Virus record (IMG/VR): IMGVR_UViG_3300045988_163275
Coordinates: 1 to 64,000 of that record
Length of the DNA: 64,000 bases
Strand: one strand, 5' to 3'
Source: a virus
Lineage: Duplodnaviria; Heunggongvirae; Uroviricota; Caudoviricetes
The position numbers were made by a program, and so were the translations under genes. Numbering within the stretch: the stretch's first letter is position 1; each line of letters opens with the position of its first letter. The notes beneath the pieces are model-generated. The model did no database searches. It saw only the letters and a program-made list of their open reading frames with translations, and was not told where the DNA came from. This document shows positions 24,388-47,795 of the stretch, in pieces.

Positions 24388-24466
24388 AACCTGCTTCCGT
24401 ATATATTTAATAAGTCACTTAGTATTTATATATACGGAAGCAGGCTCTCAAACTGGCTCCCAGACC
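24388..24466. repeat. 80-bp element: 17-bp inverted repeat around a TAAGTA-type palindrome (copy A)
   Basis: CCTGCTTCCGTATATAT, 21-nt loop (taataagtcacttagtattt), ATATATACGGAAGCAGG, then CTCTCAAACTGGCTCCCAGAC; between operon stop and terS promoter. Confidence 0.7.
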
Positions 24467-24469
24467 GAC

Positions 24470-24736
24470 TTACATCACCAGTAATTTGGCTCTGGCACGA
24501 CCTAACGTGGTCAGTCCCAGCGTGCGACGGTGGTAGCCGGAATCACCGCGCTGGCGGCACATTCCTTTCTCCACCAGCCCCTTTTTCACCAGTGCGCGGA
24601 TAGAGAACTGCATACTCTGTTTGGTCGTTTTGTACGGCAGCACTTCAAGCAGCTCGTCCAGATCGAGCAGATGCCCACGCTCATGGCCTAAATTGATGGT
24701 TTTGATGATGTCTTTTTGTTTGTCGGTCAACGTCAT
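24470..24736 (-). CDS. small winged-helix DNA-binding protein (putative regulator)
   Basis: 88 aa, HTH-like core (TTKQSMQFSIRALVKKGLVEKG); last gene of the ParB/ABC/GNAT operon, just upstream of the 17-bp IR hairpin element. Confidence 0.4.
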   Translation of the reverse strand: MTLTDKQKDIIKTINLGHERGHLLDLDELLEVLPYKTTKQSMQFSIRALVKKGLVEKGMCRQRGDSGYHRRTLGLTTLGRARAKLLVM

Positions 24737-24745
24737 GGCAAATCC

Positions 24746-25645
24746 TTATGCCGGTAATGCAATTTCAAGAGGTTTATTCAAAGGCTGTTTGTCGAATGCC
24801 AGCAGTGGCAGCGTGTCCGGCAGCTGACGACCAAAGTCCGGGTTTCGGTACACGCCATACAGCGGAGACGTGAAGCTCAGGTTGTGAATGTCCTTGAGCA
24901 GCTTCACGATGCTGGTCTCGTCCACCAGGCTGTCGGCAATGTCCTGAATCGTCGTGCCACGATTACGCCCGGCTTTGGCCAGGGAACTGTTCTTGTGGTA
25001 GTCAGCGACCAGATCACGCAGCGCACGACGACGGCGAGACTCACTCATGGCGAACAGCTCTTTGACGATCGCTTCGTTGTCGCCAGGGTCAGAACGGAAA
25101 TGACGCTGGAAGACGCGCAACGCACTCTCATAGCTCTTCGGACGCTCCGGACGGATGAACTGGAACCCTGCTTTCATGGCGAACGGGTTGTATTTGCTCA
25201 TCGACGACTGGATCTCGATGATTGGCCGGTCGTGCATCCTGCTAACCAGGTTAATCATTCGATAGGAGACGCCGACACCGCGGTACTGAGTGTCAACAAC
25301 GGAACGGCTGATCACGGCAAAGTTGTTGTTCACGTACCGGCCCCAATACTGGTTGGCCACGGTGGTATTGGTGGTTGGCTTCAGCTTAGGAAACATGCGA
25401 TGGCGAGGCGCCAGCAGCAGTTTCGGGTAAGCCATAACCACGACGCCCACCAGCCGGTCGTCCAGTTCGCAGCGATAATACGTTGGCGCGAACGGCTTAC
25501 CATCCGTCTTGTAGTGCAGCGACTTCAGCGCGTGCCAGTCTTCAACCGTGCCTTTGGTAACGGTCATACGCTCCAGAAAGTCCAGATGACGCGGGAACTC
25601 TTCCGGGCGGTAGCGTTTGATGATGATGCCTGTCATGTCGATCAC
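24746..25645 (-). CDS. GNAT-like acyltransferase domain protein with C-terminal extension
   Basis: GNAT-type motifs (VVDTQYRGVGVSYRMINLV ... NPFAMKAGFQFI) in the N-terminal half, plus about 130 aa of unknown C-terminal sequence. Confidence 0.4.
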   Translation of the reverse strand: MIDMTGIIIKRYRPEEFPRHLDFLERMTVTKGTVEDWHALKSLHYKTDGKPFAPTYYRCELDDRLVGVVVMAYPKLLLAPRHRMFPKLKPTTNTTVANQYWGRYVNNNFAVISRSVVDTQYRGVGVSYRMINLVSRMHDRPIIEIQSSMSKYNPFAMKAGFQFIRPERPKSYESALRVFQRHFRSDPGDNEAIVKELFAMSESRRRRALRDLVADYHKNSSLAKAGRNRGTTIQDIADSLVDETSIVKLLKDIHNLSFTSPLYGVYRNPDFGRQLPDTLPLLAFDKQPLNKPLEIALPA

Positions 25646-25896
25646 CTGCGCTCGATATTGGTATTGATGAAGTCCAGACGAAGCGATTCCATCGCCCCCA
25701 CCATGACGTATGGGCGCCCACCGTTATGCCAGCAATCCATAACATTGCCGTCGTTGTCGATCATCAGCAGAGCCAGGCTCTGACTTTTGCCTTCTCTTGC
25801 GTACTGGAGTGCTTCTTCCAGCAGGCGGATGACTTCAACGTTGTTGTTGTCAGTCTCTTTCGATGGCTTCAGCTCTACGATCTTCAAATCAGGCAT
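25642..25896 (-). CDS. hypothetical protein
   Basis: 84 aa ORF overlapping its neighbours by a few nt (operon context). Confidence 0.35.
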   Translation of the reverse strand: MPDLKIVELKPSKETDNNNVEVIRLLEEALQYAREGKSQSLALLMIDNDGNVMDCWHNGGRPYVMVGAMESLRLDFINTNIERR

Positions 25897-26527
25897 ATTC
25901 CACCTTCACGCGTTCTTTGTAGTGCTTGGTGATCTGCATATCCGGGCGCAGCGCGTTCTTCAGGTCTTCGTGGGTCGTCGCCACCATTACCGTCGCACCA
26001 ACCTTACGGGCGGCACGCTGGAGGTTCGACGCCACAACCTGGGCGGTTACACGGTCGAGAACAGCGCCAAATTCGTCGGCAGCCCAGACTTTCGCGCCGG
26101 ACTCGATCAGCTTGGCGATCTTGAGACGGTATTTCTGGCCGTCAGACATCTCGGATGGCTTACGCACAAAGAGATAGGCGTCATTCAATCCGGCCATAGA
26201 CAGCAGCCCCAGCGCTTCGCTGGTGGTTTTGCCCAGCTGGTCAATGACGTTAACCTCATTGTCGAAGGCAAAGTCATCGATGGAGGCTACAGAAAGCCCT
26301 TCATCCTTCATCTGGCGTTGCAGCTCGCGCAGCACAACGGATTTACCGGAACCGGATTGGCCGGTGATGTACACCACATCGCCCTGCTTCACTTCCAGCT
26401 CCAGATTGTCGTAAAGCGTCCACTCTTTTTCGTCCAGGCCAAGACCGAACGATTCGGCAATCTCCAGCGTGCGCGTGGTTTTGTTCACGCGGGTCTGAAA
26501 CGATACGTTGATGGTGTATTTGCTCAT
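25889..26527 (-). CDS. ABC-type ATPase (stand-alone nucleotide-binding domain)
   Basis: Walker A (GQSGSGKS), ABC signature-like (MSDGQKYRL), Walker B (VWAADEFGAVLD), H-loop (ATTHE). Confidence 0.65.
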   Translation of the reverse strand: MSKYTINVSFQTRVNKTTRTLEIAESFGLGLDEKEWTLYDNLELEVKQGDVVYITGQSGSGKSVVLRELQRQMKDEGLSVASIDDFAFDNEVNVIDQLGKTTSEALGLLSMAGLNDAYLFVRKPSEMSDGQKYRLKIAKLIESGAKVWAADEFGAVLDRVTAQVVASNLQRAARKVGATVMVATTHEDLKNALRPDMQITKHYKERVKVEYA

Positions 26528-27192
26528 GCGGCCAGCTCCCCAGAAGAAACTTTCTCCGCATACGCCACGAAAGCGTCTACCCCGCTCTCTCCCGTGATTT
26601 CTTCCATGTGGGCAAGCAAATCCCCAACCACAATGGCAGAGCCAGCAGGGAGCGTTTTAAAGCCCAATACGTCGATGACGCGGACTTCTTCAGAGGCCAC
26701 TTCGCGACTGATCTCGGTGTGCTCTTCCTTCTGGCGCTCCGTCTCTTCGCCCAGATCGAGCACCAGAGAGCCGGTTTCCATCTCTTCGGTCATGCTGCCG
26801 ACAAGCACGTTCAGCTCGCGCTCTTCAAAACCGAAGACCTCGACGTCGCCCAGCACCAGGGATTCCAGTTCCTGCTGCAATTTGATGGCGTCGTAGTCAA
26901 TACTGGCCAGGCGGTTGTCTTCCAGACGCTTAGCCTTCACTTCTTCTTCGCTCAGATCGTCGCGAACAATGACCGGCACACGCTCCAGACCAGCCAGAAG
27001 AGCCGCCTCGCGACGACCGTGGCCAGTAATGATGACGTCGTGCTTGTCGACAGTGATCGGCTGGTCAAAACCGCGCTTTTTGATGGCGGCCGCCAGATCG
27101 CGGATCTGCTGTTCGTCATGTTTTTTGGCGTTCATCTCATACGGGATGAGTTCTGCCGGGTTTCGATAGACGATTTCAAAGTTTTTGGTCAT
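26524..27192 (-). CDS. ParB-like nuclease domain protein
   Basis: ParB N-terminal domain motif (VIITGHGRREAALLAGLERVPVIV); acidic C-terminal half; start taken at MTKNFEIV, overlapping the upstream stop. Confidence 0.6.
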   Translation of the reverse strand: MTKNFEIVYRNPAELIPYEMNAKKHDEQQIRDLAAAIKKRGFDQPITVDKHDVIITGHGRREAALLAGLERVPVIVRDDLSEEEVKAKRLEDNRLASIDYDAIKLQQELESLVLGDVEVFGFEERELNVLVGSMTEEMETGSLVLDLGEETERQKEEHTEISREVASEEVRVIDVLGFKTLPAGSAIVVGDLLAHMEEITGESGVDAFVAYAEKVSSGELAA

Positions 27193-27890
27193 TACATACG
27201 CTCCTTGTAGTAGTCGACCAGCCACACCAGGGCTTCCCCGGCGTTCTCCATTTCGTTACCGGTATTGATTCCCTGCTCTTTGATGATGGTTTTGATGGTG
27301 TCGGCGACGCGATCTGACGCATCAAACGTCACCTTGAAGCGCATCGTCTGGTGTTCAGCGCCGACTCGCTCGGTTTTCTCGCGTTTGTCCTCATCGACCG
27401 GCTCGTCATCGCCACGGGAGAGCGCTTCCAGCGCTTCAAGATCGATAACGGACGCTTTGGCGAGTGTTGCCGCCATTTCGTCGTCATACGGGGCGATATC
27501 GGACAACCGGTAGTCGATTTCAGACTGGATTTCTTCGATTAAGCGCTGCAAAGCGACCTGATCGTCTTCGCCGTAGCGCTCGTTGTCGACGAGGGAAATC
27601 TGTTTGGCCACCAGATCGTTAATTTTGCCCACGGAGATGACGGGAACCGTTGAAATGCCCTGCTCCATCGCGGCACGCCAGCGGTGTTCACCACCGAGGA
27701 TCTCAAAAATGCCCCCGTCCAACTCCCGCGCCAGAATTGGCTTAAAAAAGCCCAATTTTTCGATAGAGCCTTTCAGTTTTTCGAAGTTTTGCGCCCCAAC
27801 GGAGTTGGTATTCCAGGGATTCGGACGCAGGTTCGCGACTTCCACCTGCAGAATCGTAATTTTCACACCCATAGTTCTGATACAATCCAT
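27192..27890 (-). CDS. ParB-like nuclease domain protein
   Basis: ParB N-terminal motif (FEILGGEHRWRAAMEQGISTVPVI); first gene of the operon, divergent from the helicase gene. Confidence 0.6.
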   Translation of the reverse strand: MDCIRTMGVKITILQVEVANLRPNPWNTNSVGAQNFEKLKGSIEKLGFFKPILARELDGGIFEILGGEHRWRAAMEQGISTVPVISVGKINDLVAKQISLVDNERYGEDDQVALQRLIEEIQSEIDYRLSDIAPYDDEMAATLAKASVIDLEALEALSRGDDEPVDEDKREKTERVGAEHQTMRFKVTFDASDRVADTIKTIIKEQGINTGNEMENAGEALVWLVDYYKERM

Positions 27891-27893
27891 TGT

Positions 27894-27910
27894 ATAAGTA
27901 CTTACTTACC
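27894..27910. repeat. TAAGTA-type palindrome
   Basis: tataagtacttacttacc; in the 64-bp divergent region between the ParB-like operon and the helicase gene. Confidence 0.5.
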
Positions 27911-27954
27911 ATAATAGCCAATTACCATACAAAAGGCACGAAGGAAAGAGGTTT

Positions 27955-29514
27955 ATGACAGTTCGGATTGTATCGAATGCAGTCAATGCGCTGATTTCTA
28001 GCGCTGATGACAACGTGAAGCGGCTCGTTCAGGAGATGTTGAGCTATGAAGTGGAGGCTGGGGACTGGAAAGGAACCAGCACGATGTTCAACTGGAGCAA
28101 AAACGCGTTCCCGGCTGGGTTTGCGAAGCCAGTTGCAGCCAACCTTCTGAAAGCTGGCATCAAATGCGTGCATGTGCGCAAGGAAAAAGCTCCCGCGCTG
28201 GGCAAGCCGAACCCGGTAGTTAACCCATTCCCGTATAACCCGGACTATGCGTATCAGGATCAGACAGTGGAAACACTGGTGCGCGAAGGGATGATGATTG
28301 CCCAGATTGCGACGGGTGGCGGTAAATCGAACGTAGCGTGTAAGGCTGCTGCTCGCATTGGTCGTATGACGCTGTTTTTAACCACGCGATCGGTTCTGAT
28401 GTTCCAGATGGCAGAGAACTTCCAGAAATCCATCGACTACCGCGCGGAGAATGGCGAGCCGTGGCTGAAAGGTCAGAGAGTTGGGGTGATTGGATCGGGT
28501 GAGTTCCAGGTCTCGCGCCATATCAACGTTGCCACGGTGCAGACCCTGGCCAGTTTTCTCGAAGAGCCACCGCGCGACGCATCACCGGAGAAAAAACAGT
28601 ACCACCTGAAGCGCCGGGAACTGGTTAAACGCTTCCTGTCCAGCGTTTCTCTGCTGATTCTGGAAGAGGCACACGAATCATCTGGTTCTAACTTCTACGA
28701 CATCGCCCGGTTGTGCATCAATGCCGACTACCGTCTGGCGCTGACAGCTACGCCGTTCATGAAGGACTCGACTGAAGCAAATATGCGTCTCATGGCCGTT
28801 GCGGGTCGCATCGAGATAAAAGTAACGGAGAAATATTTGATCGACAGAGGTATTTTAGCGAAACCATACTTTTTATATCATAAAATCGCGTACACTCCAG
28901 ATGAGGCGCGGATTAGAGCCGAACTTGCTTCAAAACACCTGAATTTTCGGGTTGGAATGAGCACGGCTTACCAGAAAGCCTATCAGTTAGGCATCGTCTA
29001 TAATCTGGGCCGCAACGAAGCTATTGTGCGTGAAGCGCTAATGTACAAGAGTCACGGTCTGAACTGTATGACATTGGTTCGTCTGAAGCGTCATGGTCAG
29101 ATCTTGATGGAAATGATGAAAGAGAGTGGCCTCAAGGTCGATTTCATCTACGGAGAATCAAACCAGACTACCCGACAAGCAAAACTTAATAGTCTGGCGG
29201 CAGGCAAGATAGATGTTCTCATTGGTTCAACCATTCTGGATGTTGGTGTCGACGTTCCAAGCGTAGGCGCGGTGATTCTGGGTGGTGGCGGGAAAGCAGA
29301 AGTTGAAATGAGACAGCGTGTCGGTCGTGGCTTACGAGCCAAGAAAAATCAGGCTAACGTGTGCTTTATTACCGACTTCATCGACGTGAGCAACAAATAC
29401 CTCATGTCGCATTCATATGAGCGGAAACACATTATCGACACGACGCCTGGGTTTGCCGAGGGGGTCTTGCCGGTTGGCAGCACATTCGATTTCACTGTTT
29501 TGGATAGAGAGTAA
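27955..29514 (+). CDS. SF2 DNA helicase (DEAH-like)
   Basis: Motif I (ATGGGKS), motif II (LEEAHE), motif III (TATP), motif VI (QRVGRGLR). Confidence 0.8.
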   Translation: MTVRIVSNAVNALISSADDNVKRLVQEMLSYEVEAGDWKGTSTMFNWSKNAFPAGFAKPVAANLLKAGIKCVHVRKEKAPALGKPNPVVNPFPYNPDYAYQDQTVETLVREGMMIAQIATGGGKSNVACKAAARIGRMTLFLTTRSVLMFQMAENFQKSIDYRAENGEPWLKGQRVGVIGSGEFQVSRHINVATVQTLASFLEEPPRDASPEKKQYHLKRRELVKRFLSSVSLLILEEAHESSGSNFYDIARLCINADYRLALTATPFMKDSTEANMRLMAVAGRIEIKVTEKYLIDRGILAKPYFLYHKIAYTPDEARIRAELASKHLNFRVGMSTAYQKAYQLGIVYNLGRNEAIVREALMYKSHGLNCMTLVRLKRHGQILMEMMKESGLKVDFIYGESNQTTRQAKLNSLAAGKIDVLIGSTILDVGVDVPSVGAVILGGGGKAEVEMRQRVGRGLRAKKNQANVCFITDFIDVSNKYLMSHSYERKHIIDTTPGFAEGVLPVGSTFDFTVLDRE

Positions 29515-29516
29515 GC

Positions 29517-29795
29517 ATGAGCGAGAAACGCGCTATTAACTGCCAGGTTAAGTTAACCGAAAAAGCAAACGATAAACTAGAGACCTTTCAGAATCGACTG
29601 CGTGAACGCAGCATAAAACTGTCAAAGGCAGACATCATCAATCTGGTGCTGTCCAATATGACGATGGGTGATTTTGATAAGATAGCTACGTCATTAGAGA
29701 CTACTGCAAAGGCTCGTGAAAAGGTCATGAAGATTTACGAAAACTCGGGTATGACCAAAGAAGATCTGGCCGATATTCTAAAACGCCTCGATTGA
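29517..29795 (+). CDS. hypothetical protein
   Basis: 92 aa ORF starting 3 nt after the helicase stop. Confidence 0.4.
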   Translation: MSEKRAINCQVKLTEKANDKLETFQNRLRERSIKLSKADIINLVLSNMTMGDFDKIATSLETTAKAREKVMKIYENSGMTKEDLADILKRLD

Positions 29796-29854
29796 GCATT
29801 ATGGCGCCTTGAGGCGCCATGATTTTCGTAAAGATAAGGATTTTGTTCGGCACA

Positions 29855-30277
29855 ATGAAACACGTATTACTTCCTCTGGTTGCTGCCTCCGCGTTACTTA
29901 TCACTGCATGTCAATCTCGTCCTATTCCTGTCTCTGAGGCAAAGCCAGCACCGCAGACCAGAATATTCAAATACCAATCTCCGGCGGCATCGACGCTGGT
30001 GGTTATGAGAGATAAAAGCATGGTGGGCGCCGGTTGCGACGCATCGATCTTCATCAATGGCGAAACCGTTGCAAAACTGGAAACAGGTGAAAAAGTCACT
30101 TTTCATCTGGATGCCGGAGAATGGATTGTTGGCGCCTCACTCGAAGACGCTGGGCTGTGCGCACTGAATCCTGCTCGTCAGGAACGCGAGACGATTACCA
30201 AAGCTGGCGAGACGAAAGTCTTCCGGGTGTTCACCAGTAATGCTGGTGACATCGATATCTTACCAACGACACTGTGA
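29855..30277 (+). CDS. lipoprotein (candidate superinfection-exclusion protein)
   Basis: Start at MKHVLLPLVAASALLITAC: signal peptide with lipobox LITA-C; mature domain about 120 aa with 2 further Cys. Confidence 0.5.
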   Translation: MKHVLLPLVAASALLITACQSRPIPVSEAKPAPQTRIFKYQSPAASTLVVMRDKSMVGAGCDASIFINGETVAKLETGEKVTFHLDAGEWIVGASLEDAGLCALNPARQERETITKAGETKVFRVFTSNAGDIDILPTTL

Positions 30278-30281
30278 CGAT

Positions 30282-30809
30282 ATGACGAATATTACTGACA
30301 TCACCTACGGGATTCCTGCAGAAGTCTGGCCGCGCGATTACACCAACGTGGAGAAAGCGCTGATGTTCTGGCGCAAGTCTCTTATTCCTGTAAGGGTCAC
30401 GATGGAAGATGGTCAGGTGTTCTGCATGTATGTTCAGGGTCTCATGTCGTCACGCAACAAGGTCGACCTTTGCCCTGCCCCGTTCGACAAAGATAATCGT
30501 ATAAGGCTCCCACTTGAGCGAATCAGCACGATTGAATCAGGTGTGACAGAAGGCATTGCACACGACTTCACGGGTCGGACAACGATACACCCAGACTATG
30601 TGGACAATCGGCCATCTCGCCGTGATTTCTTCAAAATTTGTCGCCAGGCCCATGAGATGCAGAAGTCTATAAGGGTCTACATGGCGGATGGCCGTGAAAT
30701 TGAGGGGGTGTCTTCAGGCGTTGACGCTTGTCAGGTCACACTCAACATGGGGGACGGTAGGAAGACAGTCGCCATGTTCGATTGGGTCGAACGGATTTTA
30801 CCGTTTTAA
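30282..30809 (+). CDS. hypothetical protein
   Basis: 175 aa from MTNITDITYG; last gene before the AT-rich island. Confidence 0.4.
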   Translation: MTNITDITYGIPAEVWPRDYTNVEKALMFWRKSLIPVRVTMEDGQVFCMYVQGLMSSRNKVDLCPAPFDKDNRIRLPLERISTIESGVTEGIAHDFTGRTTIHPDYVDNRPSRRDFFKICRQAHEMQKSIRVYMADGREIEGVSSGVDACQVTLNMGDGRKTVAMFDWVERILPF

Positions 30810-31054
30810 ATCTATAAGGGTAATAACCGGCTAAGTCCGGTTATTATTTTATTCGTCACTTCCCGTTATATTTATTTCCCACAAACTCGATTCCAATTTA
30901 AATATATAAGGGTGATTGGCTGAATAGAGAATTTATTTAGGCAACACCTTCGAGAAAATGCATTTTATTTCTAAGACTTTGATTTTTATTGAATAAAATT
31001 TTTCATTCCCGAACAAAAAAACTCTTGATTTTATTTTCTGTATGTCGATAATTA

Positions 31055-31125
31055 ATCACATCGAAAGCGAACGCGCTAACGATAAATAAATAAAAAATTA
31101 AGTTATCAATATTACATAAGGATTA
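31055..31125 (+). promoter_or_regulatory. sigma70-like promoter without operator palindrome (low-GC island)
   Basis: cTTGATTttattttctgtatgtcGATAATtaatcac in a roughly 320-bp AT-rich region upstream of 31131..31781; no AAACAAnTTGTTT copy. Confidence 0.45.
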
Positions 31126-31130
31126 ACATC

Positions 31131-31781: not shown

Positions 31782-31787
31782 TTAGAT

Positions 31788-31812: not shown

Positions 31813-31831
31813 AGTTTTAAGGAGCTTAATC

Positions 31832-32092: not shown

Positions 32093-32107
32093 GTTTCCAA
32101 TACTCCC

Positions 32108-33366: not shown

Positions 33367-33648
33367 TTAGTGGAGCAGACCGATGTCGATGGTATCCCCT
33401 GAATCATCCACACGGATCATCAGCATGGCGAAGGCGTTTAGTGGATAGCTTGCGTGCCATTCAGGGAAGCGGTCATCTCGCATGAAGTCGGCAATGTCGT
33501 AAACGCAGCCCTCAAAGTGGAAGAATCGCGTGCTTACCTGCTCGTCATATTCCACATGATCCATTTCTTGCTGTTCTGTTTCCGGCAAGTCCAGCCATGA
33601 TTCAAGGAATACATTTTGTGCTTTAGGGGTAATGGTGAAATCAGTCAT
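33367..33648 (-). CDS. hypothetical early protein (acidic)
   Basis: Start at MTDFTITPKA with RBS GAGGA; promoter plus palindrome module upstream. Confidence 0.45.
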   Translation of the reverse strand: MTDFTITPKAQNVFLESWLDLPETEQQEMDHVEYDEQVSTRFFHFEGCVYDIADFMRDDRFPEWHASYPLNAFAMLMIRVDDSGDTIDIGLLH

Positions 33649-39012: not shown

Positions 39013-39026
39013 TGTTTAAGGGATGA

Positions 39027-40444: not shown

Positions 40445-40476
40445 TCCATAAATATAAAAGCGCCTGACTATAGCAC

Positions 40477-40692: not shown

Positions 40693-40738
40693 ATTGCGGG
40701 CCTGCTCTGCGTCGATTTCTCTCTCTCCCTGCGCAACT

Positions 40739-41664: not shown

Positions 41665-41706
41665 GTGTTTTTTCTCTTATCATATAGTCACTATATTCTT
41701 ACATAG

Positions 41707-41728
41707 ATTAGGTAAGTATTTACCTCTC
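41707..41728. repeat. TAAGTA-type palindrome
   Basis: attaggtaagtatttacctctc; between the methyltransferase stop and 41664 start. Confidence 0.5.
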
Positions 41729-43412
41729 ATTTAACGCGTTTAAAAACGTATACGCTGACAGTAATCCCGGTGTCTTCAAACATGTTAGTAAACGACTTCC
41801 CTTTGGCATAAACGTAATTATCCAGCGTCATCCAGTTTAGAATTGGCGCGTCGCCCGGCAGCACTGCTACCAGACGCCCACCGACTTTCAGATGTCCCAG
41901 CGCGGCCAACGTGTGCTCTCTGTGACGGCCAAGAGAGTAGGGCGGGTTCATGACGATTTTGTCGAACTGATAACCTGCGTTGTCCTCAGACCACTTCATG
42001 AAGTCGCAGCAGACCGTATTTGTGTACCCCTTGCCAAGCAGGATATCAGCGAAGAGAGGTGCGACTTCTATGCAGGTAACGTCTTCCGGATTGGCGTCGA
42101 TGCAGGCCAGCAGATCTCCGCGCCCGGCTTCAGGCTCCAGCAGCTTCTCACCTGGCTTCAGCTCGATGGCTCTGGCAACGTACTCCGCTATCAAACGCGG
42201 GGTAGGGTAGAACTGGTGTGATTTTGTATCCGGTATTAAGCCGGTGGCCACAATCGTATTGAGCGTATGGCCGATCTCATACGGGAACTGCCAGTGCTTG
42301 TTCTCCTGCACGCCGCCAATAAAGCTCAGTGTACGCTCCAGCTCTTCCACCTGTGACTTCTGAAGACCGGAATCAGAGAAGTACCATACGCGTTTGTCAT
42401 TGCCAGATCGCCCGTCGCGAAGCGCAGTACGCACCGGCTCGGAGATCGTCTTCTGGATTAACCCGAACTGTTTTGGTGCCCGTGTTTTGGGCGCAGTACG
42501 ACATGGAGCCGGGATTGCAGCGGGCATACTGTAAGCCAGCACCTCATTCAGCTTCCAGGCTACGTCAGGATGTATTTCAAAGTGAACGTTGCCGTTCTTA
42601 AACATCTTCACACGCATCAGGTTTCCGTCGACATTCATCCAGTCGCCGGTCTGGCAGTCATTTGCTCGATACGCAGCTGACAGCATCTCGGCCGTGCGGT
42701 TGATGGTGATAAATTCTTTGTGTGCAAAGAAATGCAACATGACGCGCAGGTCGTCTATGTAATCCTCTTTCCGGTAGTTAACGCTGACGCTGTCCCGCCA
42801 GAAATCGGAAATGCAGTCGGCGATGATCAGACGCTCGCTGAAGCCGTTCGTCTTATTGGTCTTGTGAGCAGGACTCAACGCCTTAAACAAGCCATACACG
42901 CGCTCAGAGAGATATTTGTGCCTGTCATTCAGCAAATTAAGCATCGTTGGTATGACCGTTTCTGCTTTGAACTCAGGTACACCAACGAACTCTTTAACCT
43001 TCATTTGATAGCCAGTTCTGTCAGTCTTGATCGTTTCCTGCTTGCCCTCGATAAACTGTTCACGCCACTCGTCGCGGCGGGATGCTGGCATGATCAGCAG
43101 AACGTTGGTCATATCCGTGACCTTCTTCCAGTACTCGGCCCAGATATTTTGTTTCACCCATTCCAGGTCGACTTTGTCCAGCCAGGTTCTGTTAAAGCGT
43201 GTGCGCTCGTCGTCCGGCCGGTGGTTAAGTCGCAGTAGACGGTTAATCATGTTGTGGCGTTCGTCGCCATAAACGAAGTCGTGAACCTTATTCATGAACG
43301 CAATCTCTTTCTCGCATTCGGCCACAATTTCGTGGATAACATTCATTTCCTGCCGGTAGTCAATACCGGTGTCTGGAGTGATAGAGTCAATGATGGAAAG
43401 GGCTGTATTCAT
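41727..43412 (-). CDS. DNA methyltransferase (N6-adenine/N4-cytosine type) with large N-terminal domain
   Basis: C-terminal methyltransferase motifs: motif I (LLEPEAGRGDLL) and motif IV (VMNPPYS); about 390-aa N-terminal region of unknown function; true ATG at MNTALSIIDS; promoter plus palindrome module upstream. Confidence 0.7.
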   Translation of the reverse strand: MNTALSIIDSITPDTGIDYRQEMNVIHEIVAECEKEIAFMNKVHDFVYGDERHNMINRLLRLNHRPDDERTRFNRTWLDKVDLEWVKQNIWAEYWKKVTDMTNVLLIMPASRRDEWREQFIEGKQETIKTDRTGYQMKVKEFVGVPEFKAETVIPTMLNLLNDRHKYLSERVYGLFKALSPAHKTNKTNGFSERLIIADCISDFWRDSVSVNYRKEDYIDDLRVMLHFFAHKEFITINRTAEMLSAAYRANDCQTGDWMNVDGNLMRVKMFKNGNVHFEIHPDVAWKLNEVLAYSMPAAIPAPCRTAPKTRAPKQFGLIQKTISEPVRTALRDGRSGNDKRVWYFSDSGLQKSQVEELERTLSFIGGVQENKHWQFPYEIGHTLNTIVATGLIPDTKSHQFYPTPRLIAEYVARAIELKPGEKLLEPEAGRGDLLACIDANPEDVTCIEVAPLFADILLGKGYTNTVCCDFMKWSEDNAGYQFDKIVMNPPYSLGRHREHTLAALGHLKVGGRLVAVLPGDAPILNWMTLDNYVYAKGKSFTNMFEDTGITVSVYVFKRVK

Positions 43413-43421
43413 GATTGCACC

Positions 43422-43482
43422 ATTAAACAAATTGTTTTCTTATTGGTGTTATTTTCTCAAAGCTAAAAAGGCGTAAAAGCAG
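43422..43482 (-). promoter_or_regulatory. promoter plus palindrome module
   Basis: Minus strand: GCTTTTACGCCTTTTT...GAAAATAACACCAATAAGAAAACAATTTGTTTAATGG, upstream of the methyltransferase gene. Confidence 0.55.
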
Positions 43483-43552
43483 CATTCACAGGCGTTGCAG
43501 CTGATTTAAGACGTAAAAAGGGGGCTTTCGTCCCCTGTACGCAGGTGAGAGA

Positions 43553-44125
43553 TTAGTGGTGTACGTGCTGCGTTTTGTACGGCTGTTTGTTCAGGTTGTG
43601 GCGGTGCATAAGCTCGCGCATCATGTCTTCAAGACGGCTCTTGGTGTCGTCAAGCTGGTCGGCCATTGCCCCCAGCAGCTGGCGAAGGGCCATCGGATCG
43701 TCGCTGTTCAGCTCAGGCATTTTGAACCCAGCCTGGGAAGACATCAGTTTGAAAGCGGCCAGCAACATCGCCAGAGAAGACTTCAGCCCGGCGATTTCAT
43801 GATCTTTGCTGGCGTTGGTTTCATCTGCCTTGACTGAATCCAGTGAGCACTTCGGCTTGCTTACCATTTCCAGAGTTGCCTGAAGTTTGTCGGCGCGTTC
43901 TTTCTCTTCCAGATACGCTTCGCCGAAATGACGCGCCAGCATCACAATTTCAATCGGATCATCAATCATGCTTGAGAACTTGAGAACGCTGAAAAGGCGG
44001 TCAATAGGGGAGGCGTCGTCTTCGTGACCAACCACAAGACCCATGATCTCAACCAGTTCGGCCGCACCAACTTTTTTAATCACGCTTTCAACTTTGGCAT
44101 TAGTTTTTTTGCATTTTTCACACAT
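43553..44125 (-). CDS. hypothetical protein
   Basis: 190 aa, N-terminal CxxC (MCEKCKK); promoter plus palindrome module upstream. Confidence 0.45.
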   Translation of the reverse strand: MCEKCKKTNAKVESVIKKVGAAELVEIMGLVVGHEDDASPIDRLFSVLKFSSMIDDPIEIVMLARHFGEAYLEEKERADKLQATLEMVSKPKCSLDSVKADETNASKDHEIAGLKSSLAMLLAAFKLMSSQAGFKMPELNSDDPMALRQLLGAMADQLDDTKSRLEDMMRELMHRHNLNKQPYKTQHVHH

Positions 44126-44141
44126 GTGTTCTTCCTTATGC

Positions 44142-44205
44142 TTTTAAACAAGTTGTTTTCTTAATTGTTTAATTGTCTCAAATTCTATGATGATGTGAAG
44201 AGTTG
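44142..44205 (-). promoter_or_regulatory. promoter plus palindrome module
   Basis: Minus strand: ...ACAATTAAACAATTAAGAAAACAACTTGTTTAAAAG, upstream of 43553..44125. Confidence 0.5.
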
Positions 44206-44333
44206 CATTAAGGCGAAAAGACACGCAAAAGGAAAAATCAGGCATACCAGACATTTATTTAAAGTGGCATTCATAGCAGAATGTTCTCATTGCCGAAGTT
44301 CTATTCAGACGTCAGTCCCTAAGAGAGAGCAAA

Positions 44334-45293
44334 ATGTTTGGTAATCTTTTCAAAACGGAAGAAACTAAGGCCCGGGAGGGCTTGGAGTCTCATTATCAGA
44401 AAGTCATGAGCTTCGTTGCTGAAAATGATCTACATGAAGCATGGGAAAAAACACGCAATATCATTTTTCGAAATATGGAAGTTAGAAGCTACATCACGCA
44501 AAACGGCGCGTTCGATCGTAACGATTTTTACTATAAGTCAGCCAAAGAGAAGCTTATTCAAAGCGCCTTCACTTCATACCTACTCATAAAAGTTTTACCT
44601 CAGTTCTATGAAATGCATCTCACCACTTTGAAAAGAAAAGAAAAAACACTCACAACACAGGATGAATACGGGGTCTGGAACTTTGACAAGTGGTTTGATG
44701 AAGTAGACTACTTTTATGACAAGGTAGTAAAAGAGAAAGTTTACGATTGGATCGAAGAGAACACAGGCCGGCTCAACAACCTTTGGTTGGCAGAGTCGGA
44801 GGACAAGAATGCCTGGGGGCGGCCAGTTTACTTTAAATTCCAGTTGCCTGAACAATTTGATCGCTGCGCAATAAATCACATTATGACGGTGGTAGACAAT
44901 ACACCAGAACCTGAATTACCTGAGTACACTTCGCTACTGACCGGGCACGAATATGAGCATTTTGTCGCTGGGGAGTTTATGAAGTATGGATCCGACACCC
45001 AAGTAACTAAGGGCAGCGGCGATCACGGTCTGGATATCCTTGTAACCTATAGAGAAGTTCGAATGGCTGTTCAGTGCAAACACTACCAGTCTAAAGTAGG
45101 CAACAAAGCTATTCAGGAAGCATTTTCCGCGAAACAGTTCTACGATTGCTCCCTCGCAATAGTAGTCAGCAACAGCGAGTTTACCCCTCACGCCAGACAA
45201 GCAGCCAAAAAACTGGACGTTTATCTGTATCACCATGAAGATATACACTTAATAATAGACGCCATTAATAATTGGCTGGATGCGCCGGAGTGA
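44334..45293 (+). CDS. Mrr-type restriction endonuclease domain protein with novel N-terminal domain
   Basis: C-terminal PD-(D/E)xK Mrr-catalytic pattern (GHEYEHFVAGEFMKYG...GSGDHGLDILVT...VQCKHYQSKVGNKAIQEAFSA...VVSNSEFTPHARQAAKK); aromatic-rich N-terminal region of about 200 aa. Confidence 0.65.
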   Translation: MFGNLFKTEETKAREGLESHYQKVMSFVAENDLHEAWEKTRNIIFRNMEVRSYITQNGAFDRNDFYYKSAKEKLIQSAFTSYLLIKVLPQFYEMHLTTLKRKEKTLTTQDEYGVWNFDKWFDEVDYFYDKVVKEKVYDWIEENTGRLNNLWLAESEDKNAWGRPVYFKFQLPEQFDRCAINHIMTVVDNTPEPELPEYTSLLTGHEYEHFVAGEFMKYGSDTQVTKGSGDHGLDILVTYREVRMAVQCKHYQSKVGNKAIQEAFSAKQFYDCSLAIVVSNSEFTPHARQAAKKLDVYLYHHEDIHLIIDAINNWLDAPE

Positions 45294-45328
45294 AGATTGA
45301 GGGGCTAATGCCCCCCCCTATTCGTCGG

Positions 45329-45517
45329 TTAAAAGAACCCGAGGATGCCGCCCACTGGAACAATGAAAACTCCCACGACACGCGCAAGTGTCACTCCGGC
45401 ATGAGACTGGAGATCGCCATCGTTCACAAGTTTCACCAGATTCATGATCCAGCCGCTAAACAAAAAAACGGTAAAGCCAACAATCATCAAGGTGAATTTC
45501 TGGAAGTTCCATTTCAT
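45329..45517 (-). CDS. small two-helix membrane protein
   Basis: 62 aa with two hydrophobic helices (FTLMIVGFTVFLFSGWIMNLV; VVGVFIVPVGGILGFF); ATGA-coupled to the upstream ORF. Confidence 0.4.
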   Translation of the reverse strand: MKWNFQKFTLMIVGFTVFLFSGWIMNLVKLVNDGDLQSHAGVTLARVVGVFIVPVGGILGFF

Positions 45518-45771
45518 ACAATAGCCTCAGTCACAGCAGAAGGAAGATCCGGAGTCGCAGGTCGAGCTGGAATCGTGTCCATCAGCATCCCATCCAGAGA
45601 GACAGGAGGTCGTTCGGGCAGGGGGGTCATCTGCAAGGCCGTGGTGGCAGTGGAAGTAGTTGTGCCCGGCATCAAAAGGCTCTGACCGGCTGGTACGGTA
45701 ACCGCTGCCAGAGTTGCCAAAATCACTCCGTAGGCCATTGGCTTCAGTCGATTTCGTTGAAAATTTTCCAT
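45514..45771 (-). CDS. secreted Pro/Thr-rich small protein (embedded ORF)
   Basis: Start at MENFQRNRLK with RBS AAGGA; signal-peptide-like segment (MAYGVILATLAAVTVPAG) then Thr/Pro-rich tail; lies in another frame inside the 3' half of ORF 45527..46120. Confidence 0.35.
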   Translation of the reverse strand: MENFQRNRLKPMAYGVILATLAAVTVPAGQSLLMPGTTTSTATTALQMTPLPERPPVSLDGMLMDTIPARPATPDLPSAVTEAIV

Positions 45772-46120
45772 GAGAACTGTCCTTGTGTGTCCGGGTTTCA
45801 CGCAAAACACGAGAAGCAACGCTATTACGCACCTTCTCCATGCCTACTGTCGTGCCCAGATTAGCTATGGCGGTAGCTTGCGCATTAATGCGCTTCTCCA
45901 GTTCAAACACTCGTTCTTCCAGTTCCGCAAGGCGTGCGGAAACACGACCACTAAACAGCTCGGTCAGCACCAGGCGAATTGAACGGGGACGTTTATTGAA
46001 AGAAGTGAAAGACGTTTGACGGGCCATGTGGATTCCATTCAGTGTCAGAAAGAGTTGCGGCTGGCCAAGCCGCCTTTTGGCGTTCCATCCTGGAACCGTA
46101 CCTAACCGGTACTTCGTCAT
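45527..46120 (-). CDS. hypothetical protein with coiled-coil segment (overlaps embedded ORF)
   Basis: 197-aa ORF; N-terminal half protein-like with coiled coil (RLAELEERVFELEKRINAQATAIANL); C-terminal half low-complexity and overlapped out of frame by 45514..45771. Confidence 0.25.
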   Translation of the reverse strand: MTKYRLGTVPGWNAKRRLGQPQLFLTLNGIHMARQTSFTSFNKRPRSIRLVLTELFSGRVSARLAELEERVFELEKRINAQATAIANLGTTVGMEKVRNSVASRVLRETRTHKDSSHGKFSTKSTEANGLRSDFGNSGSGYRTSRSEPFDAGHNYFHCHHGLADDPPARTTSCLSGWDADGHDSSSTCDSGSSFCCD

Positions 46121-46152
46121 CCTGACGATTTATAAGATACCTGATTTATTAT

Positions 46153-46174
46153 AGTAGGTAAATACTTACTTATC
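46153..46174. repeat. TAAGTA-type palindrome
   Basis: agtaggtaaatacttacttatc; between rnhA stop and 46120 start. Confidence 0.5.
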
Positions 46175-46177
46175 TTT

Positions 46178-46774
46178 TTATGACAAAAACCCAATGTCAT
46201 GCTTGTGAGGCATATCAGCTGCGGAATAGGCGGCGATCTTCGCCAGACGGTCACACATTTCGTTCTCGCGATGACCTGCATGGCCTTTAACCCACTTCCA
46301 GCGGACATTATGACGACTGGCGGCCGCGTCGAGACGTTTCCAGAGATCCACGTTTTTGACTGGCTTCTTCTCAGACGTGATCCATCCGTTACGCTTCCAG
46401 CCTTTCATCCAGAGCGTCATGCCGTTTTTAAGATACTGGCTGTCGGAATGCAGGATCACGTTGCAGGGGTACTTCAGACGCTCCAGCGCAATCAGGGCGC
46501 CCATCATCTCCATCCGATTGTTGGTCGTGCTGTGGAAGCCCTCAGAAAGCTCGCGCTCTTCGCCTCGATACTGGAGAACGATGCCGTAACCGCCCGGCCC
46601 GCCCGGATTTTTGAGGCAGGAGCCATCACTGAATACTTTTACGGTTTTGAGCTGGGGATTGAACTCGACTACGGGTGTGTTGAAATTGGTACGGGAATGC
46701 TGGTGGGTTTGGCATCTGGCTTTAGACTTCGTGCGGCAGCCAGTGCGTTGCCGGACTGGGTTCTTGGTCGTCAT
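46178..46774 (-). CDS. rnhA: ribonuclease HI
   Basis: Close match to E. coli RnhA pattern ([20 protein letters not shown]...[12 protein letters not shown]...[11 protein letters not shown]...[10 protein letters not shown]...[18 protein letters not shown]); about 40-aa basic N-terminal extension; RBS GGAG. Confidence 0.85.
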
Positions 46775-47350
46775 TTTGGCTCCAGAATCGTGCGCCGCGA
46801 CGATTTTTGTTTTCTCGCGCGTGTGCGCACGCGTGCGTGTAAATAATAAAAAATTTTATAAAAGAAAAACTTACTTCCCAGAACAGGTTTTAATAAAACC
46901 TGAACTGAACGAACGAAGTGAGTGAAGTTCACCTCGAACGAAGTGAGAGGTTGTCTTTTCAGGTAATACTCTCCCAGGGAGGTGAGTACAAAATTTCCTC
47001 ACCAACCTGGTCGTTTCATAACCTGAAAAGTTATGACCTAAGTCTACTGCCAGCTTAGGCTTGGGAAGTTATGGATGACAGCACCCCAGAACCGAGATCT
47101 TCCCACACTTTATGAAGGGGAGTACTGGAATCAACCTCTCGAAACACTCCAGACTCGACAATCATAAAGTGACCCTTCTCTCTGCTCACTTTGGTTCCCC
47201 CTTCCCCAACCCCTAAACGGTGCTGGTTCTACGCTGGTAGTGAGCTTTTTTAAACCTGACGCCAGTGACGCAATCCCCCACCCATCAGGTCGAGCTGCCG
47301 AAAGTATCCGGAAGCGGATAGATTGTATCACTGGTTAGTGGCGCTTTGAA

Positions 47351-47368
47351 TGGTAAGTACTTACCTAT
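47351..47368. repeat. TAAGTA-type palindrome
   Basis: tggtaagtacttacctat; overlaps the stop codon of 47368..47598. Confidence 0.5.
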
Positions 47369-47598
47369 TATATTGATTGATTAATTTCTCGCCCATGCAG
47401 CTGGACATTCAGAGCAAACACCTCATTGATCAGCTCACCCAACAACTGCTCCACCAGTTCTATGTGCTCGCCTGAATGAAGACACTTGAGCGACCATTCG
47501 TAGAGACTGAAAGCCTTATCGCGATCTTTCATCATGTCGCGTATCTTGGCCAGAAAATCGCTCTCAACGAGCGCTACGACGTTCGTCGGGTATATCAT
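47368..47598 (-). CDS. hypothetical protein
   Basis: 76 aa ORF downstream of the 17-bp IR hairpin element. Confidence 0.4.
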   Translation of the reverse strand: MIYPTNVVALVESDFLAKIRDMMKDRDKAFSLYEWSLKCLHSGEHIELVEQLLGELINEVFALNVQLHGREINQSI

Positions 47599-47714
47599 GA
47601 TAATTTTCCTTACTGTGGTTCATAAAATCGATTCTAGAGCGTCTGGAGAGGGACTCCAGTGGGTTCTGGAGGTGTAAAACGGTCTGGGAGTTGTTTGGAA
47701 ATCACGTCTTAAAA

Positions 47715-47795
47715 AGCCTGCGTCTGTATATATTAATAATTAGTACTTAGTTATTTATATATACGGAAGCAGGTTCTCAAACTAACTCCCAGACT
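47715..47795. repeat. 80-bp element: 17-bp inverted repeat around a TAAGTA-type palindrome (copy B)
   Basis: CCTGCGTCTGTATATAT ... ATATATACGGAAGCAGG then TTCTCAAACTAACTCCCAGAC; right arm identical to copy A; immediately 3' of dam. Confidence 0.7.

Follow-up and report, generated by a model that had tools for sequence, protein, structure and literature searches.

The 64,000-nucleotide stretch analysed here (the window) comes from an SSU5-like phage-plasmid with its genes on the minus strand and carries two similar hairpin-like sequences, each lying between two genes. Are they copies of one element and, if so, what might that element do? A first reading, made from the sequence alone, had suggested transcript boundaries, processing sites, or sites for recombination or inversion. 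Our analysis partly supports that interpretation. Both hairpins are genuine copies of a conserved 55-bp palindromic site that borders the main gene blocks and may serve in their control.

Two copies of a palindrome in the window

The 17-mer arm ATATATACGGAAGCAGG matches the window at four places with at most three mismatches (24390-, 24428+, 47717- and 47757+), against 0.13 matches expected from shuffled sequence, and none of 100 shuffles gave four. The reported pair of copies, here A and B, is thus beyond chance, and their direct orientation was borne out. The extent of the element needs revision: instead of an 80-bp hairpin, each copy is a near-complete palindrome of 55 bp (A) or 57 bp (B), flanked by a second, outer inverted repeat (GGTCTGGGAG / CTCCCAGACC). 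The centre, earlier read as TAAGTA, consists of TAAGT-N-ACTTA at copy A and of AGTACT at copy B; it is ~90% A+T and sits between GC-rich inverted boxes. When the arms are taken as 13 bp, the spacer is 29-31 bp; among the elements compared, relatives included, the arm-to-arm length ranges over 50-57 bp. Copy B keeps 15 of the 17 left-arm positions (not 14), and the 21-nt flank differs at three positions (not two). This flank had been described as a 3' extension, whereas, relative to transcription, it lies upstream of the palindrome, because all genes adjoining both copies are on the minus strand. Each copy is just past a stop codon and ~105-120 nt ahead of the next start codon, at a block border, in keeping with the earlier placement between a gene stop and the next unit. 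The literature searched contained no account of the element.

Features at copy A, in the direction of transcription:
24470..24736, minus strand: 88-aa gene with a winged-helix (MarR/PadR-like) DNA-binding fold, directly upstream of A
24445..24466, minus strand: upstream flank, GGTCTGGGAGCCAGTTTGAGAG on the minus strand, directly past the stop codon that ends the 88-aa gene; forms the left half of the outer repeat
24390..24444, minus strand: 55-bp palindromic core, whose arms CCTGCTTCCGTATATAT / ATATATACGGAAGCAGG enclose the AT-rich centre
24370..24380, minus strand: downstream outer repeat, CTCCCCAGCCC on the minus strand
24349..24360, minus strand: conserved motif CACCCAGAAAAC (ACACYNCRGAA), ACACTGCGGAA in distant relatives
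24313..24352, minus strand: two 15-mers present at copy A only, AAACAAATTGGTTAG and AAACAAGTTGTTTAG, between the palindrome and the terS-like gene
24294..24313, minus strand: small GC hairpin GGAGCGCAAGGATGCGCTCT followed by GAGTGTTTTA, just ahead of the ribosome-binding site of the terS-like gene
23633..24274, minus strand: gene for a terS-like DNA-binding protein (phrog_867); TerL comes next

Copy A fills the gap between the 88-aa gene and the terS-like gene, which opens the packaging and morphogenesis block, and matches both the phage SSU5 record ends and Yersinia pestis pMT1 with 100% identity. The RNA of a 111-nt stretch around it has a predicted fold of -48.2 kcal/mol (z = -7.7). The upstream flank is kept in both the A and the B contexts of relatives.

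Features at copy B, in the direction of transcription:
47801..48394, minus strand: gene for a Dam-type DNA adenine methyltransferase (PF05869, E = 4e-37), the final gene of the block upstream of B
47774..47795, minus strand: upstream flank, AGTCTGGGAGTTAGTTTGAGAA on the minus strand, directly past the dam stop codon
47717..47773, minus strand: 57-bp palindromic core; in the sense direction its upstream arm is CCTGCTTCCGTAT and its downstream arm ATACAGACGCAGG
47710..47716, minus strand: T-run, CTTTTTA in the sense direction, abutting the downstream arm
47681..47697, minus strand: downstream outer repeat, CAAACAACTCCCAGACC on the minus strand, pairing with the upstream flank
47631..47636, minus strand: candidate sigma-70 -10 hexamer TAGAAT, seen by alignment, ~30 nt ahead of the start of the 76-aa gene
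47368..47598, minus strand: 76-aa gene (phrog_5343), the first gene downstream of B

Two positions of the copy B arms do not pair, and the sense-strand RNA has a predicted fold of -45.6 kcal/mol (z = -8.6). The candidate -10 hexamer reads TAAAAT in other lineages and is tentative, since the promoter consensus scan, which called nothing in region A or B, missed it.

A third copy and conserved positions among relatives

Phage SSU5, the closest full-length relative and the single close relative examined in full, has exactly three copies. The third, C, is at SSU5 33458-33513, upstream of the replication block and beyond this window. The SSU5 sites lie 22-35 nt past a stop codon and ~105-120 nt ahead of a block's first start codon, one in the intergenic gap at the head of every major co-directional block: A precedes the terS-like gene and then packaging, head, tail and lysis genes; B lies past dam, ahead of the block that opens with the 76-aa gene; and C precedes a gene-038 homologue, a DnaB-like helicase and a primase. 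The sequence-only reading had looked to further copies and to conservation, and both are found, as positions A, B and C are each kept in hundreds of relatives. An Escherichia albertii plasmid has the element in the same orientation relative to genes as at all other sites.

Upstream of C the relatives are a mosaic of unrelated genes, with homology beginning at the palindrome, and in other plasmids that have C the copy stays beside the gene-038/DnaB/primase unit; the element therefore belongs to the unit downstream of it. No copies were found outside the SSU5/pHCM2/pMT1 plasmid family, host chromosomes included, which argues against a dispersed mobile repeat.

Conservation of the arms and T-runs

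Across 151 unique elements from the three loci (46 A, 50 B and 55 C; 302 arms), arm positions 1-4, 7 and 10-11 show no variation, whichever arm and whichever of the loci is considered, and positions 12-13 almost none (4 exceptions in 302 arms). Positions 5, 6, 8 and 9 vary, mostly without compensation; position 6 does not pair in 14 of 46 A and 10 of 50 B sequences, and one lineage has a compensated change at B arm position 8. Some C lineages keep the arms though the centre is no longer palindromic. The mismatches would mostly be G-U wobbles in the sense RNA (roughly 110 versus 26 cell counts, uncorrected for relatedness), and Pectobacterium has further mismatches of this type.

Plasmids of Moellerella, Pectobacterium and Klebsiella oxytoca share this gene order and have palindromes in the corresponding gaps, with different arms: the right arm reads CCTAGCTCCCATA in Moellerella, CCG(C/T)GCTC(T/C)CATA in Pectobacterium and ATCCAGAGCAAGG in K. 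oxytoca, and within each genome all sites share one arm type. Solitary single arms also occur between genes, at Moellerella 12535, 38852 and 64217 and at Pectobacterium 65262, the last in a position equivalent to Moellerella 64217. These are unable to form a hairpin in cis, yet match the arm variant of their own genome. Such arms, changing together at every site of a genome, point to recognition by one plasmid-encoded factor. The invariant positions, the uncompensated variation and this concerted change favour arms that behave as a recognised sequence, beyond a mere stem, a point absent from the earlier reading. Gene conversion between copies could imitate co-evolution with a factor.

A T-run (at least 5 T within 9 nt past the right arm, in the sense direction) follows 45 of 50 unique B and 50 of 55 unique C elements and none of the 46 A elements; on the antisense side of B, none was seen in the 50 unique sequences. 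Given this sense-direction T-run, which A lacks, copies B and C probably also terminate the upstream block. The suggested role at transcript boundaries is thus plausible for B and C, whereas A lacks the T-run.

A site possibly read in trans and the rival explanations

We tentatively favour the view that the conserved sites are targets of a trans-acting, sequence-specific factor, most likely a DNA-binding transcription regulator. The element would consist of two inverted copies of an asymmetric recognition sequence of ~20-23 bp, made up of the GC-rich arm CCTGCTTCYGTAT and the adjoining AT-rich stretch. As a cis-acting DNA site of the SSU5/pHCM2/pMT1 family it would thus be bivalent. A plasmid-encoded factor may read the arms at all sites and so coordinate expression of the blocks, by activation or repression. 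At B and C, the inverted arms with the downstream T-run would in addition end transcription of the upstream block as an intrinsic terminator, combining terminator and regulatory boundary in one site.

Operators of the P1 C1 repressor offer a parallel: they are asymmetric, 17 bp long, stand ahead of different operons, and occur alone or joined in pairs as imperfect palindromes. There too a phage-plasmid has a ~20-bp asymmetric site, single or in inverted pairs, with several copies scattered over ~100 kb. However, the sequences are unrelated, the pairs here are ~29 bp apart whereas those of P1 overlap, and the sites here lie upstream of candidate promoters with no repressor linked to them.

Several observations count against a regulator. 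No arm-binding protein was identified. The 88-aa protein (AlphaFold model, pLDDT 85; Foldseek matches to MarR, MepR and AF1382, TM 0.71-0.76) does not co-vary with the arms, since its putative recognition helix is invariant also where the arms of a lineage differ. Two ParB_N proteins near A have no recognisable helix-turn-helix, and putative repressor genes have no arm-like sequence nearby. Candidate sigma-70 -10 elements are ~60-110 nt downstream of the sites and do not overlap them, which is atypical of a repressor operator. The variable arm-to-arm length is awkward for one rigid dimer, and the very stable predicted folds and mostly G-U mismatches fit an RNA hairpin instead.

An RNA-level role is a serious rival, and in our estimate an unlikely one as the whole explanation. 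A hairpin of ~25 bp plus the outer repeat, transcribed inside long co-directional transcripts, would be an intrinsic terminator (B and C), an RNase III processing site or 3' stabiliser, or both, and its sequence conservation would reflect common descent and gene conversion. This would suit the sense-strand folds (-30 to -48 kcal/mol, z -4.7 to -8.6 across elements), T-runs on the sense side only, sites directly past stop codons, an orientation to genes that is constant even in the E. albertii plasmid, the G-U bias, and the compensated change at B. Against it, 9 of 13 arm positions are invariant or nearly so at three paralogous loci while the flanks diverge, true mismatches are frequent at position 6, the T-run is missing from every A, the loop is ~29 nt in some C lineages, and the solitary arms of Moellerella and Pectobacterium track their genome's arm variant without pairing in cis. 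Moellerella and K. oxytoca also have ordinary terminators beside some sites, next to which the element would be redundant as a terminator, the terminator scan did not call the elements, and Rfam has no family matching them.

The elements resemble the intrinsic (Rho-independent) terminators of phage module boundaries in the GC-clamped hairpin and sense T-run past the last gene of a block at B and C, but differ in the length of the hairpin, its AT-rich upper stem, the lack of a T-run at A, one sequence retained, with no compensatory drift, at three loci and in different lineages, and the single arms in relatives. The RNase III sites of phage T7 are long, interrupted hairpins that separate the cistrons within co-directional operons, several per genome and mutually similar. 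Long intercistronic hairpins are predicted here too, but the arms are conserved far more strictly than RNase III requires, and solitary arms cannot give double-stranded RNA in cis.

It is improbable that the sites are lytic replication origins, with inverted boxes around an easily melted AT-rich centre that would bind an initiator, the product of gene 038 encoded just downstream of C. The base composition of the centre and the constant company of C with the gene-038/helicase/primase unit in the other plasmids examined would agree with this, and multiple origin copies per genome have precedents. The herpes simplex oriS/oriL and SPP1 oriL/oriR likewise combine inverted boxes, an AT-rich centre and multiple copies, one beside replication genes. 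Here, however, two of the three copies are away from replication genes (A and B adjoin packaging and dam genes), no initiator is identified, and the cumulative GC and AT skews of SSU5 climb steadily with no turning point at any site. The gene 038 protein matches no family or solved structure, and solitary arms stand upstream of unrelated genes in relatives.

A very doubtful alternative makes copy A part of a terminase packaging signal (pac or cos), with B and C as relics or auxiliary sites. Copy A is directly upstream of the terS-like gene, the customary pac/cos place; the SSU5 GenBank and RefSeq records begin and end exactly at its centre; and the 15-mers confined to A are arranged like lambda cosB. 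Each 15-mer contains a small palindrome, AAACAA-N-TTGTTT, and a 25-nt deletion merges the two in one lineage; they could be sites bound by TerS or a regulator. Two further, equally conserved copies argue otherwise, since the genome of a cos phage would be cut there as well. A 454 assembly would likewise break a record at a perfect palindrome, and the Cyrano record, with the same start, gives no independent support, being a re-annotated plasmid pLF82 apparently laid out like SSU5. The closest solved TerL relatives, P74-26 and T4 gp17, leave the packaging type unsettled, and copies are kept by pMT1 and the defective plasmid pYLPI6a, neither known to make phage.

Similarly slight is the chance of dispersed parS-like centromere sites, or of loading sites for a KorB/ParB-like global regulator. 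The linear phage-plasmid N15 has four scattered palindromic SopB centromere sites, and here too several palindromes are spread over a low-copy phage-plasmid, some near phage-gene promoters. Genes for a ParA-like ATPase and a small protein lie 2-3 kb upstream of C, every lineage has the genes for the two ParB_N-domain proteins 1.8-3.4 kb upstream of A, and KorB class II operators lie at a comparable distance from promoters. But the ParB_N proteins, despite a GxxRxxA-type motif, have an acidic tail and no detectable helix-turn-helix. The parS or OB sites of N15 and RK2 KorB are 13-16-bp perfect palindromes bound by helix-turn-helix ParB proteins, and no such ParB is evident here. The present site measures 55 bp, and ~29 bp separate its 13-bp arms. 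Moreover, pMT1, which uses a P1-type par system, retains A unchanged.

Least probable, and largely refuted, are site-specific recombination targets or a selfish MITE/REP-like palindromic repeat without plasmid function: the inverted 13-bp arms do look like recombinase core sites or transposon ends, relatives encode a tyrosine recombinase, and C has a mosaic junction at its left edge, but in more than 300 loci (119 viral-contig instances and ~230 others retrieved through their neighbouring genes) no copy had exchanged its surroundings on either side and no A/B hybrid junction was seen, the ~29-bp spacer greatly exceeds a tyrosine-recombinase core, and the sites occupy fixed, orthologous places in every lineage, without insertion polymorphism and without copies beyond the plasmid family. 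The earlier suggestion of inversion or deletion thus finds no support; direct repeats would in any case give deletion, not inversion.

The small GC hairpin ahead of the terS-like gene is itself terminator-like in the scan, and it shows compensated change (GAGCAC/GTGCTC) in relatives.

Palindromic sites at fixed places in SSU5-like phage-plasmids

The window is an SSU5/pHCM2-type phage-plasmid: the part that was compared with Salmonella phage SSU5 shows 98.5% identity to it, and E. coli plasmids from this family match at about 99%. Both copies of the palindromic site described by the sequence-only reading, here A and B, are present where it had placed them. Below, arms are the 13-bp inverted ends of each site and the centre is the AT-rich stretch between them.

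24390-24444, minus strand: core of copy A, after the stop codon of an 88-aa protein gene and before the terS-like gene and TerL
47717-47773, minus strand: core of copy B, after the dam methyltransferase gene and before a 76-aa gene

The likeness of the copies does exceed chance, given that the window has four matches to the 17-mer arm with at most three mismatches, where 0.13 are expected and no shuffle gave as many. Several details have to be corrected. The left arm of B agrees at 15 of 17 positions rather than 14, the shared flank has three mismatches rather than two, and in place of TAAGTA the centre of A has TAAGT-N-ACTTA and that of B has AGTACT. Because the neighbouring genes are on the minus strand, what had been called a 3' extension is the upstream flank in the direction of transcription, GGTCTGGGAG-N12. 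This flank has a downstream partner, CTCCCAGACC, and the whole element is therefore an imperfect palindrome of 100-125 bp. The finding is real, has more structure than was first seen, and recurs in conserved form throughout a plasmid family of clinical importance.

Further copies elsewhere in the replicon had been thought worth seeking, and SSU5 has exactly three, the third of which we call C:

SSU5, both ends of the linear record: copy A
SSU5, 33458-33513: copy C, outside the window, upstream of gene 038, which heads the DnaB-like helicase/primase/ligase/polymerase block
SSU5, 78304-78360: copy B

The three sites cut SSU5 into a block for packaging, morphogenesis and lysis, a block for replication and nucleotide metabolism, and an accessory and regulatory block. 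An exact-arm scan of IMG/VR gave 117 stretches, all in A, B or C context. When loci were retrieved via their flanking proteins, blind to the palindrome, only one or two of those with enough flank lacked it at the expected position. A 161-bp query (copy A plus flanks) matches 798 PLSDB plasmid records from Klebsiella, Escherichia, Enterobacter, Yersinia, Salmonella, Citrobacter and Cronobacter, and Yersinia pMT1 is 100% identical over it. Across 185,579 species genomes, true elements are confined to Kluyvera, Buttiauxella, Y. pestis and one probably contaminated MAG, and match the family's A, B and C contexts; the remaining hits are hairpins without relation to the element, picked up by the degenerate pattern. 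The restricted distribution makes the element specific to the SSU5-type plasmid family, and not a dispersed repeat. A full-text literature search, whose coverage did not extend to two relevant older papers, returned no description of the element, and a 2026 preprint on phage-plasmid heteroresistance deals with a different family.

Two contigs of a Bacillota MAG (JAEWTL01; L356 and L359) carry typical enterobacterial A-type and C-type copies, probably through binning contamination by an SSU5-like plasmid. The E. coli plasmid pYLPI6a (NZ_CP074043; L351/L352) is a close relative, 99% identical over 20 kb. Its annotation passes from the minor-tail gene to the SSU5_129 homologue with nothing in between, and packaging and head genes are thus apparently missing; it keeps B and C, copy A was not found there, and it is probably a defective phage-plasmid.

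Conserved arms and solitary arms

The anatomy of the site in close relatives was drawn from 151 unique sequences (302 arms) covering all three loci, with an element length of 50-57 bp. Both arms follow the consensus CCTG-Y-N-T-Y-Y-GTAT. Positions 1-4, 7 and 10-11 are invariant at all three loci, and positions 12-13 differ in just 4 of the 302 arms. Variation is found at positions 5, 6, 8 and 9, usually in a single arm, so that the changes are mostly uncompensated: position 6 is non-pairing in 14 of 46 A and 10 of 50 B sequences, and at position 9 the choice between C and T in one arm is largely independent of the other. Several C lineages have lost the symmetry of the centre and kept the arms, and the loop is about 29 nt in some.

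In a test for co-variation, the outer flanks scored 15.5 within their own pair and 15.5 across lineages at A, 20.6 and 18.2 at B, and 11.3 and 11.4 at C. Rather than a stem that co-varies, the outer repeat is therefore mainly the conserved motif GGTCTGGG / CCCAGACC. Folding of the three sets with RNAalifold was uninformative, the alignment being spoilt by indels in the AT-rich centre. As to the transcript-boundary role that had been proposed from the sequence alone, the sequence just past the downstream arm speaks for it at B and C, where 45 of 50 and 50 of 55 sequences have at least five T within 9 nt, but not at A, where none of 46 do.

Upstream of C the sequence is mosaic, with unrelated genes in different relatives, and the left edge of C is a sharp mosaic junction (about 1300-1330 in L199-L278). 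Since homology starts at the C palindrome, the element is part of the unit downstream; C stays beside the gene-038/helicase/primase unit in other plasmids, and its site may be a hotspot at which modules are exchanged. Within the leader of the gene that follows C, AAGTAAGTGACT may resemble the ERIC repeat. Further features accompany the sites on their downstream side:

Within 24294-24352, minus strand: two 15-mers AAACAARTTGKTTAG, each with a small palindrome, ahead of the terS-like gene (copy A only)
Within 24294-24352, minus strand: conserved GC hairpin with a TGTTTT tail, after the 15-mers and just before the terS-like ribosome-binding site
24349-24360 and 47662-47672 in the window, L373 22724, L374 45927, L379 about 18215: motif ACACYNCRGAA

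The GC hairpin shows a compensated change (GAGCGC/GCGCTC to GAGCAC/GTGCTC), and a 25-nt deletion in one lineage fuses the two 15-mers; together they are possibly sites for TerS or a regulator plus an attenuator. The ACACYNCRGAA motif follows the sites by 9-45 nt in all lineages, as CACCCAGAAAAC or CCTCCAGAAC here and as ACACTGCGGAA in Moellerella, Pectobacterium and Xenorhabdus.

More distant plasmids, found via homologues of the terS-like protein at 50-65% identity, come from Moellerella, Xenorhabdus, Pectobacterium and K. oxytoca and have the same gene order. The three complete ones (Moellerella, Pectobacterium and K. oxytoca) have AT-rich palindromic or single sites in the same three gaps with different arms, and inside each genome one arm variant is common to all sites.

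Moellerella, arms: CCTAGCTCCCATA / TATGGGAGCTAGG
Pectobacterium, arms: CCG(C/T)GCTC(T/C)CATA / TATGGGAGC(G/A)CGG
K. oxytoca, arm in right-arm reading: ATCCAGAGCAAGG
Moellerella, 12535, 38852 and 64217: extra single left-type arms in intergenic gaps
Moellerella, plasmid position 87728 (L374 about 37728): single right-type arm with AT-rich flank (AATACTTATGGGAGCTAGG) inside the nrdA coding sequence
Pectobacterium, 65262: single arm matching the position of Moellerella 64217, upstream of AAA-ATPase and dnaE genes
K. oxytoca, at B and C: single right-type arms

The match in Moellerella nrdA is too long for chance. A single arm allows no hairpin in cis, yet it follows the variant of its genome, which local pairing cannot explain. 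Judged from the sequences, a trans-acting reader of an asymmetric site of about 20-23 bp (arm plus a TAAATAYTAT-like flank) can explain this, and the only alternative to such a reader is frequent gene conversion among the copies. Two further genes stand out in the Pectobacterium plasmid, Drgb1: one for Hfq (L379 48354-48575), between the homologue of gene 038 and the DnaB-like helicase, and one for Shedu defence (L379 34260-35150), lying within the tail module as an insertion.

Possible roles of the sites

As the best-supported reading we infer from their placement and arms, tentatively and somewhat short of calling it probable, that the sites are a set of cis-regulatory sites for one plasmid-encoded factor. 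They would be placed where each gene block starts and, in the SSU5 lineage, be paired head-to-head; such pairing together with the T-run would at B and C also end transcription of the upstream block, and these two copies probably do serve as terminators in this way. The kind is familiar, a regulatory site plus a terminator at operon borders; the architecture and the concerted arm change are unusual.

The nearest analogy is with the C1 operators of phage-plasmid P1, which are dispersed, asymmetric, and single or paired. Similarly, the sites here are asymmetric and, at about 20-23 bp, within the 17-23 bp expected of that type; they form inverted pairs in the SSU5 lineage, and single arms occur in Moellerella, Pectobacterium and K. 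oxytoca. One sequence per genome, differing between lineages, is also as in the C1 type, although gene conversion could give the same pattern. Unlike C1 operators, the sites do not overlap the candidate promoters, as candidate -10 elements lie about 60-110 nt downstream:

Before the B gene: TAGAAT/TAAAAT
Before the C gene: TATGAT/TATCAT
At a fourth site, upstream of AAA-ATPase/dnaE, in Moellerella and Pectobacterium: TAATAT

A sigma-70 consensus scan around A and B gave no promoter, and sigma-54 motifs, sought by eye, gave nothing convincing. As no binder was identified, the sites lie off the candidate -10 elements and the consensus scan gave no promoter, they can be likened to the P1 C1 type but not assigned to it. 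A likeness of TATAAATA and ACTATGGGAG to T4-late or T7-type promoters was set aside, as the annotation shows neither a phage RNA polymerase nor a late sigma factor and solitary left-type arms would point away from genes.

A purely RNA-level role, as terminator, RNase III site or stabiliser, is a serious rival. Predicted folds of the sense strand reach -48.2, -45.6 and -30.6 kcal/mol for A, B and C (z-scores -7.7, -8.6 and -4.7), the T-runs are sense-specific, and most arm mismatches would be G-U in sense RNA. However, a role in RNA only does not account for the fixed positions in the arms, for a copy A that lacks the T-run, or for the solitary arms. As in intrinsic terminators, a GC-rich stem-loop is predicted in the transcript of all three copies. 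In contrast to these compact structures (stem about 5-20 pairs, loop 3-8 nt), the hairpin spans 55-57 nt, and its stem is not kept by compensatory change, nine of 13 arm positions being invariant; a terminator consensus scan called neither A nor B. The predicted double-stranded RNA between cistrons, interrupted and at least about 20 bp long, is like that of T7-type RNase III sites if co-transcription is assumed, and an Rfam scan of the whole window gave no family.

It is also conceivable, if improbable, that the arms serve throughout the genome as a recognition code that is read in trans in RNA, with the hairpins as regulated terminators in a master switch between lysis and plasmid. In this scenario, an RNA-binding factor would read the arms, or left-type and right-type arms of different transcripts would pair. 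During plasmid life the terminators would silence the blocks for packaging, replication and accessory functions, and induction would override them all together. Antisense immunity is known from the CI RNA of P4 with seqA/seqC and from the c4 RNA of P1, and trans pairing of arms would resemble it. If true, this would be a master plasmid/lytic switch in a family that has among its members pHCM2, pMT1 and numerous Klebsiella and E. coli phage-plasmids with resistance genes.

Copy A alone could have a role in packaging (cos or pac), as it adjoins the small-terminase gene and the SSU5 GenBank/RefSeq records (NC_018843; L001 position 1, L003 end) start and end at its centre (window 24407/24408). Yet the site is not unique, having three copies in SSU5, and assemblies, too, would break at a perfect palindrome, so the record end could be either a true DNA end or an assembly break. 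The Cyrano record, which has the same start, is re-annotated plasmid pLF82, apparently laid out like SSU5, and is not independent.

Lytic replication origins fit only the form of the sites, an AT-rich centre with inverted boxes, and the position of C beside the replication genes; A and B are not next to such genes, and the cumulative GC and AT skew of SSU5 rises steadily with no turning point, a weak test because all genes are co-oriented. Recombination, inversion or deletion at the sites, another suggestion of the sequence-only reading, is not supported: no hybrid junction occurs in more than 300 loci (three apparent A/B hybrid contexts are truncated loci), and the inverted arms, a feature of loxP/dif-type sites, are separated by about 29 bp instead of 6-8 bp. 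A mobile miniature repeat (MITE/REP-like) is excluded, because positions are fixed and orthologous and the distribution is restricted, without spread in host chromosomes.

Candidate binders and the control circuit

SSU5-like phage-plasmids are common, among them pHCM2 of S. Typhi, pMT1 of Y. pestis and many resistance-carrying Klebsiella, E. coli and Enterobacter plasmids, and to our knowledge almost nothing has been established about how they control plasmid maintenance versus lytic growth. A short conserved site at the start of each major block, with arms that change in concert, is an obvious handle on the control circuit: it offers bait for the regulator, defined mutations for block-wise expression, and a signature for lineage typing. 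Even if the sites were merely terminators, the set would be a useful map of transcription units. Two features lie upstream of copy A:

24470-24736, minus strand: gene of the 88-aa protein, a winged helix of MarR/PadR type in the model
24746-27890, minus strand: gene cluster conserved in every lineage examined

Modelling confirmed a winged-helix fold for the 88-aa protein (pLDDT 85; TM 0.71-0.76), which in Pfam, NCBIfam, PHROGs, PADLOC and PDB searches had faint winged-helix hits alone. The protein is 60-99% identical across all lineages examined. It is the one candidate tested as arm binder, and what speaks against it is that lineages whose arms differ share one and the same putative recognition helix, so the protein does not track the arms. 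The other flanking small proteins and gene 038 had no match in the same five databases, and arm-like sites are absent near putative repressor genes.

The cluster at 24746-27890 has no convincing match to known defence systems. Two of its products are ParB_N proteins with a GxxRxxA motif, an acidic tail and no detectable helix-turn-helix, and a parS/ParB centromere was rejected; in contrast to the 13-16-bp perfect palindromes of parS (N15/KorB type), the 13-bp arms here are about 29 bp apart. The cluster also encodes an ATPase of ABC type and two further proteins, of 84 and 299 aa; all of its genes but that for the 299-aa protein adjoin the packaging genes, directly upstream of them.
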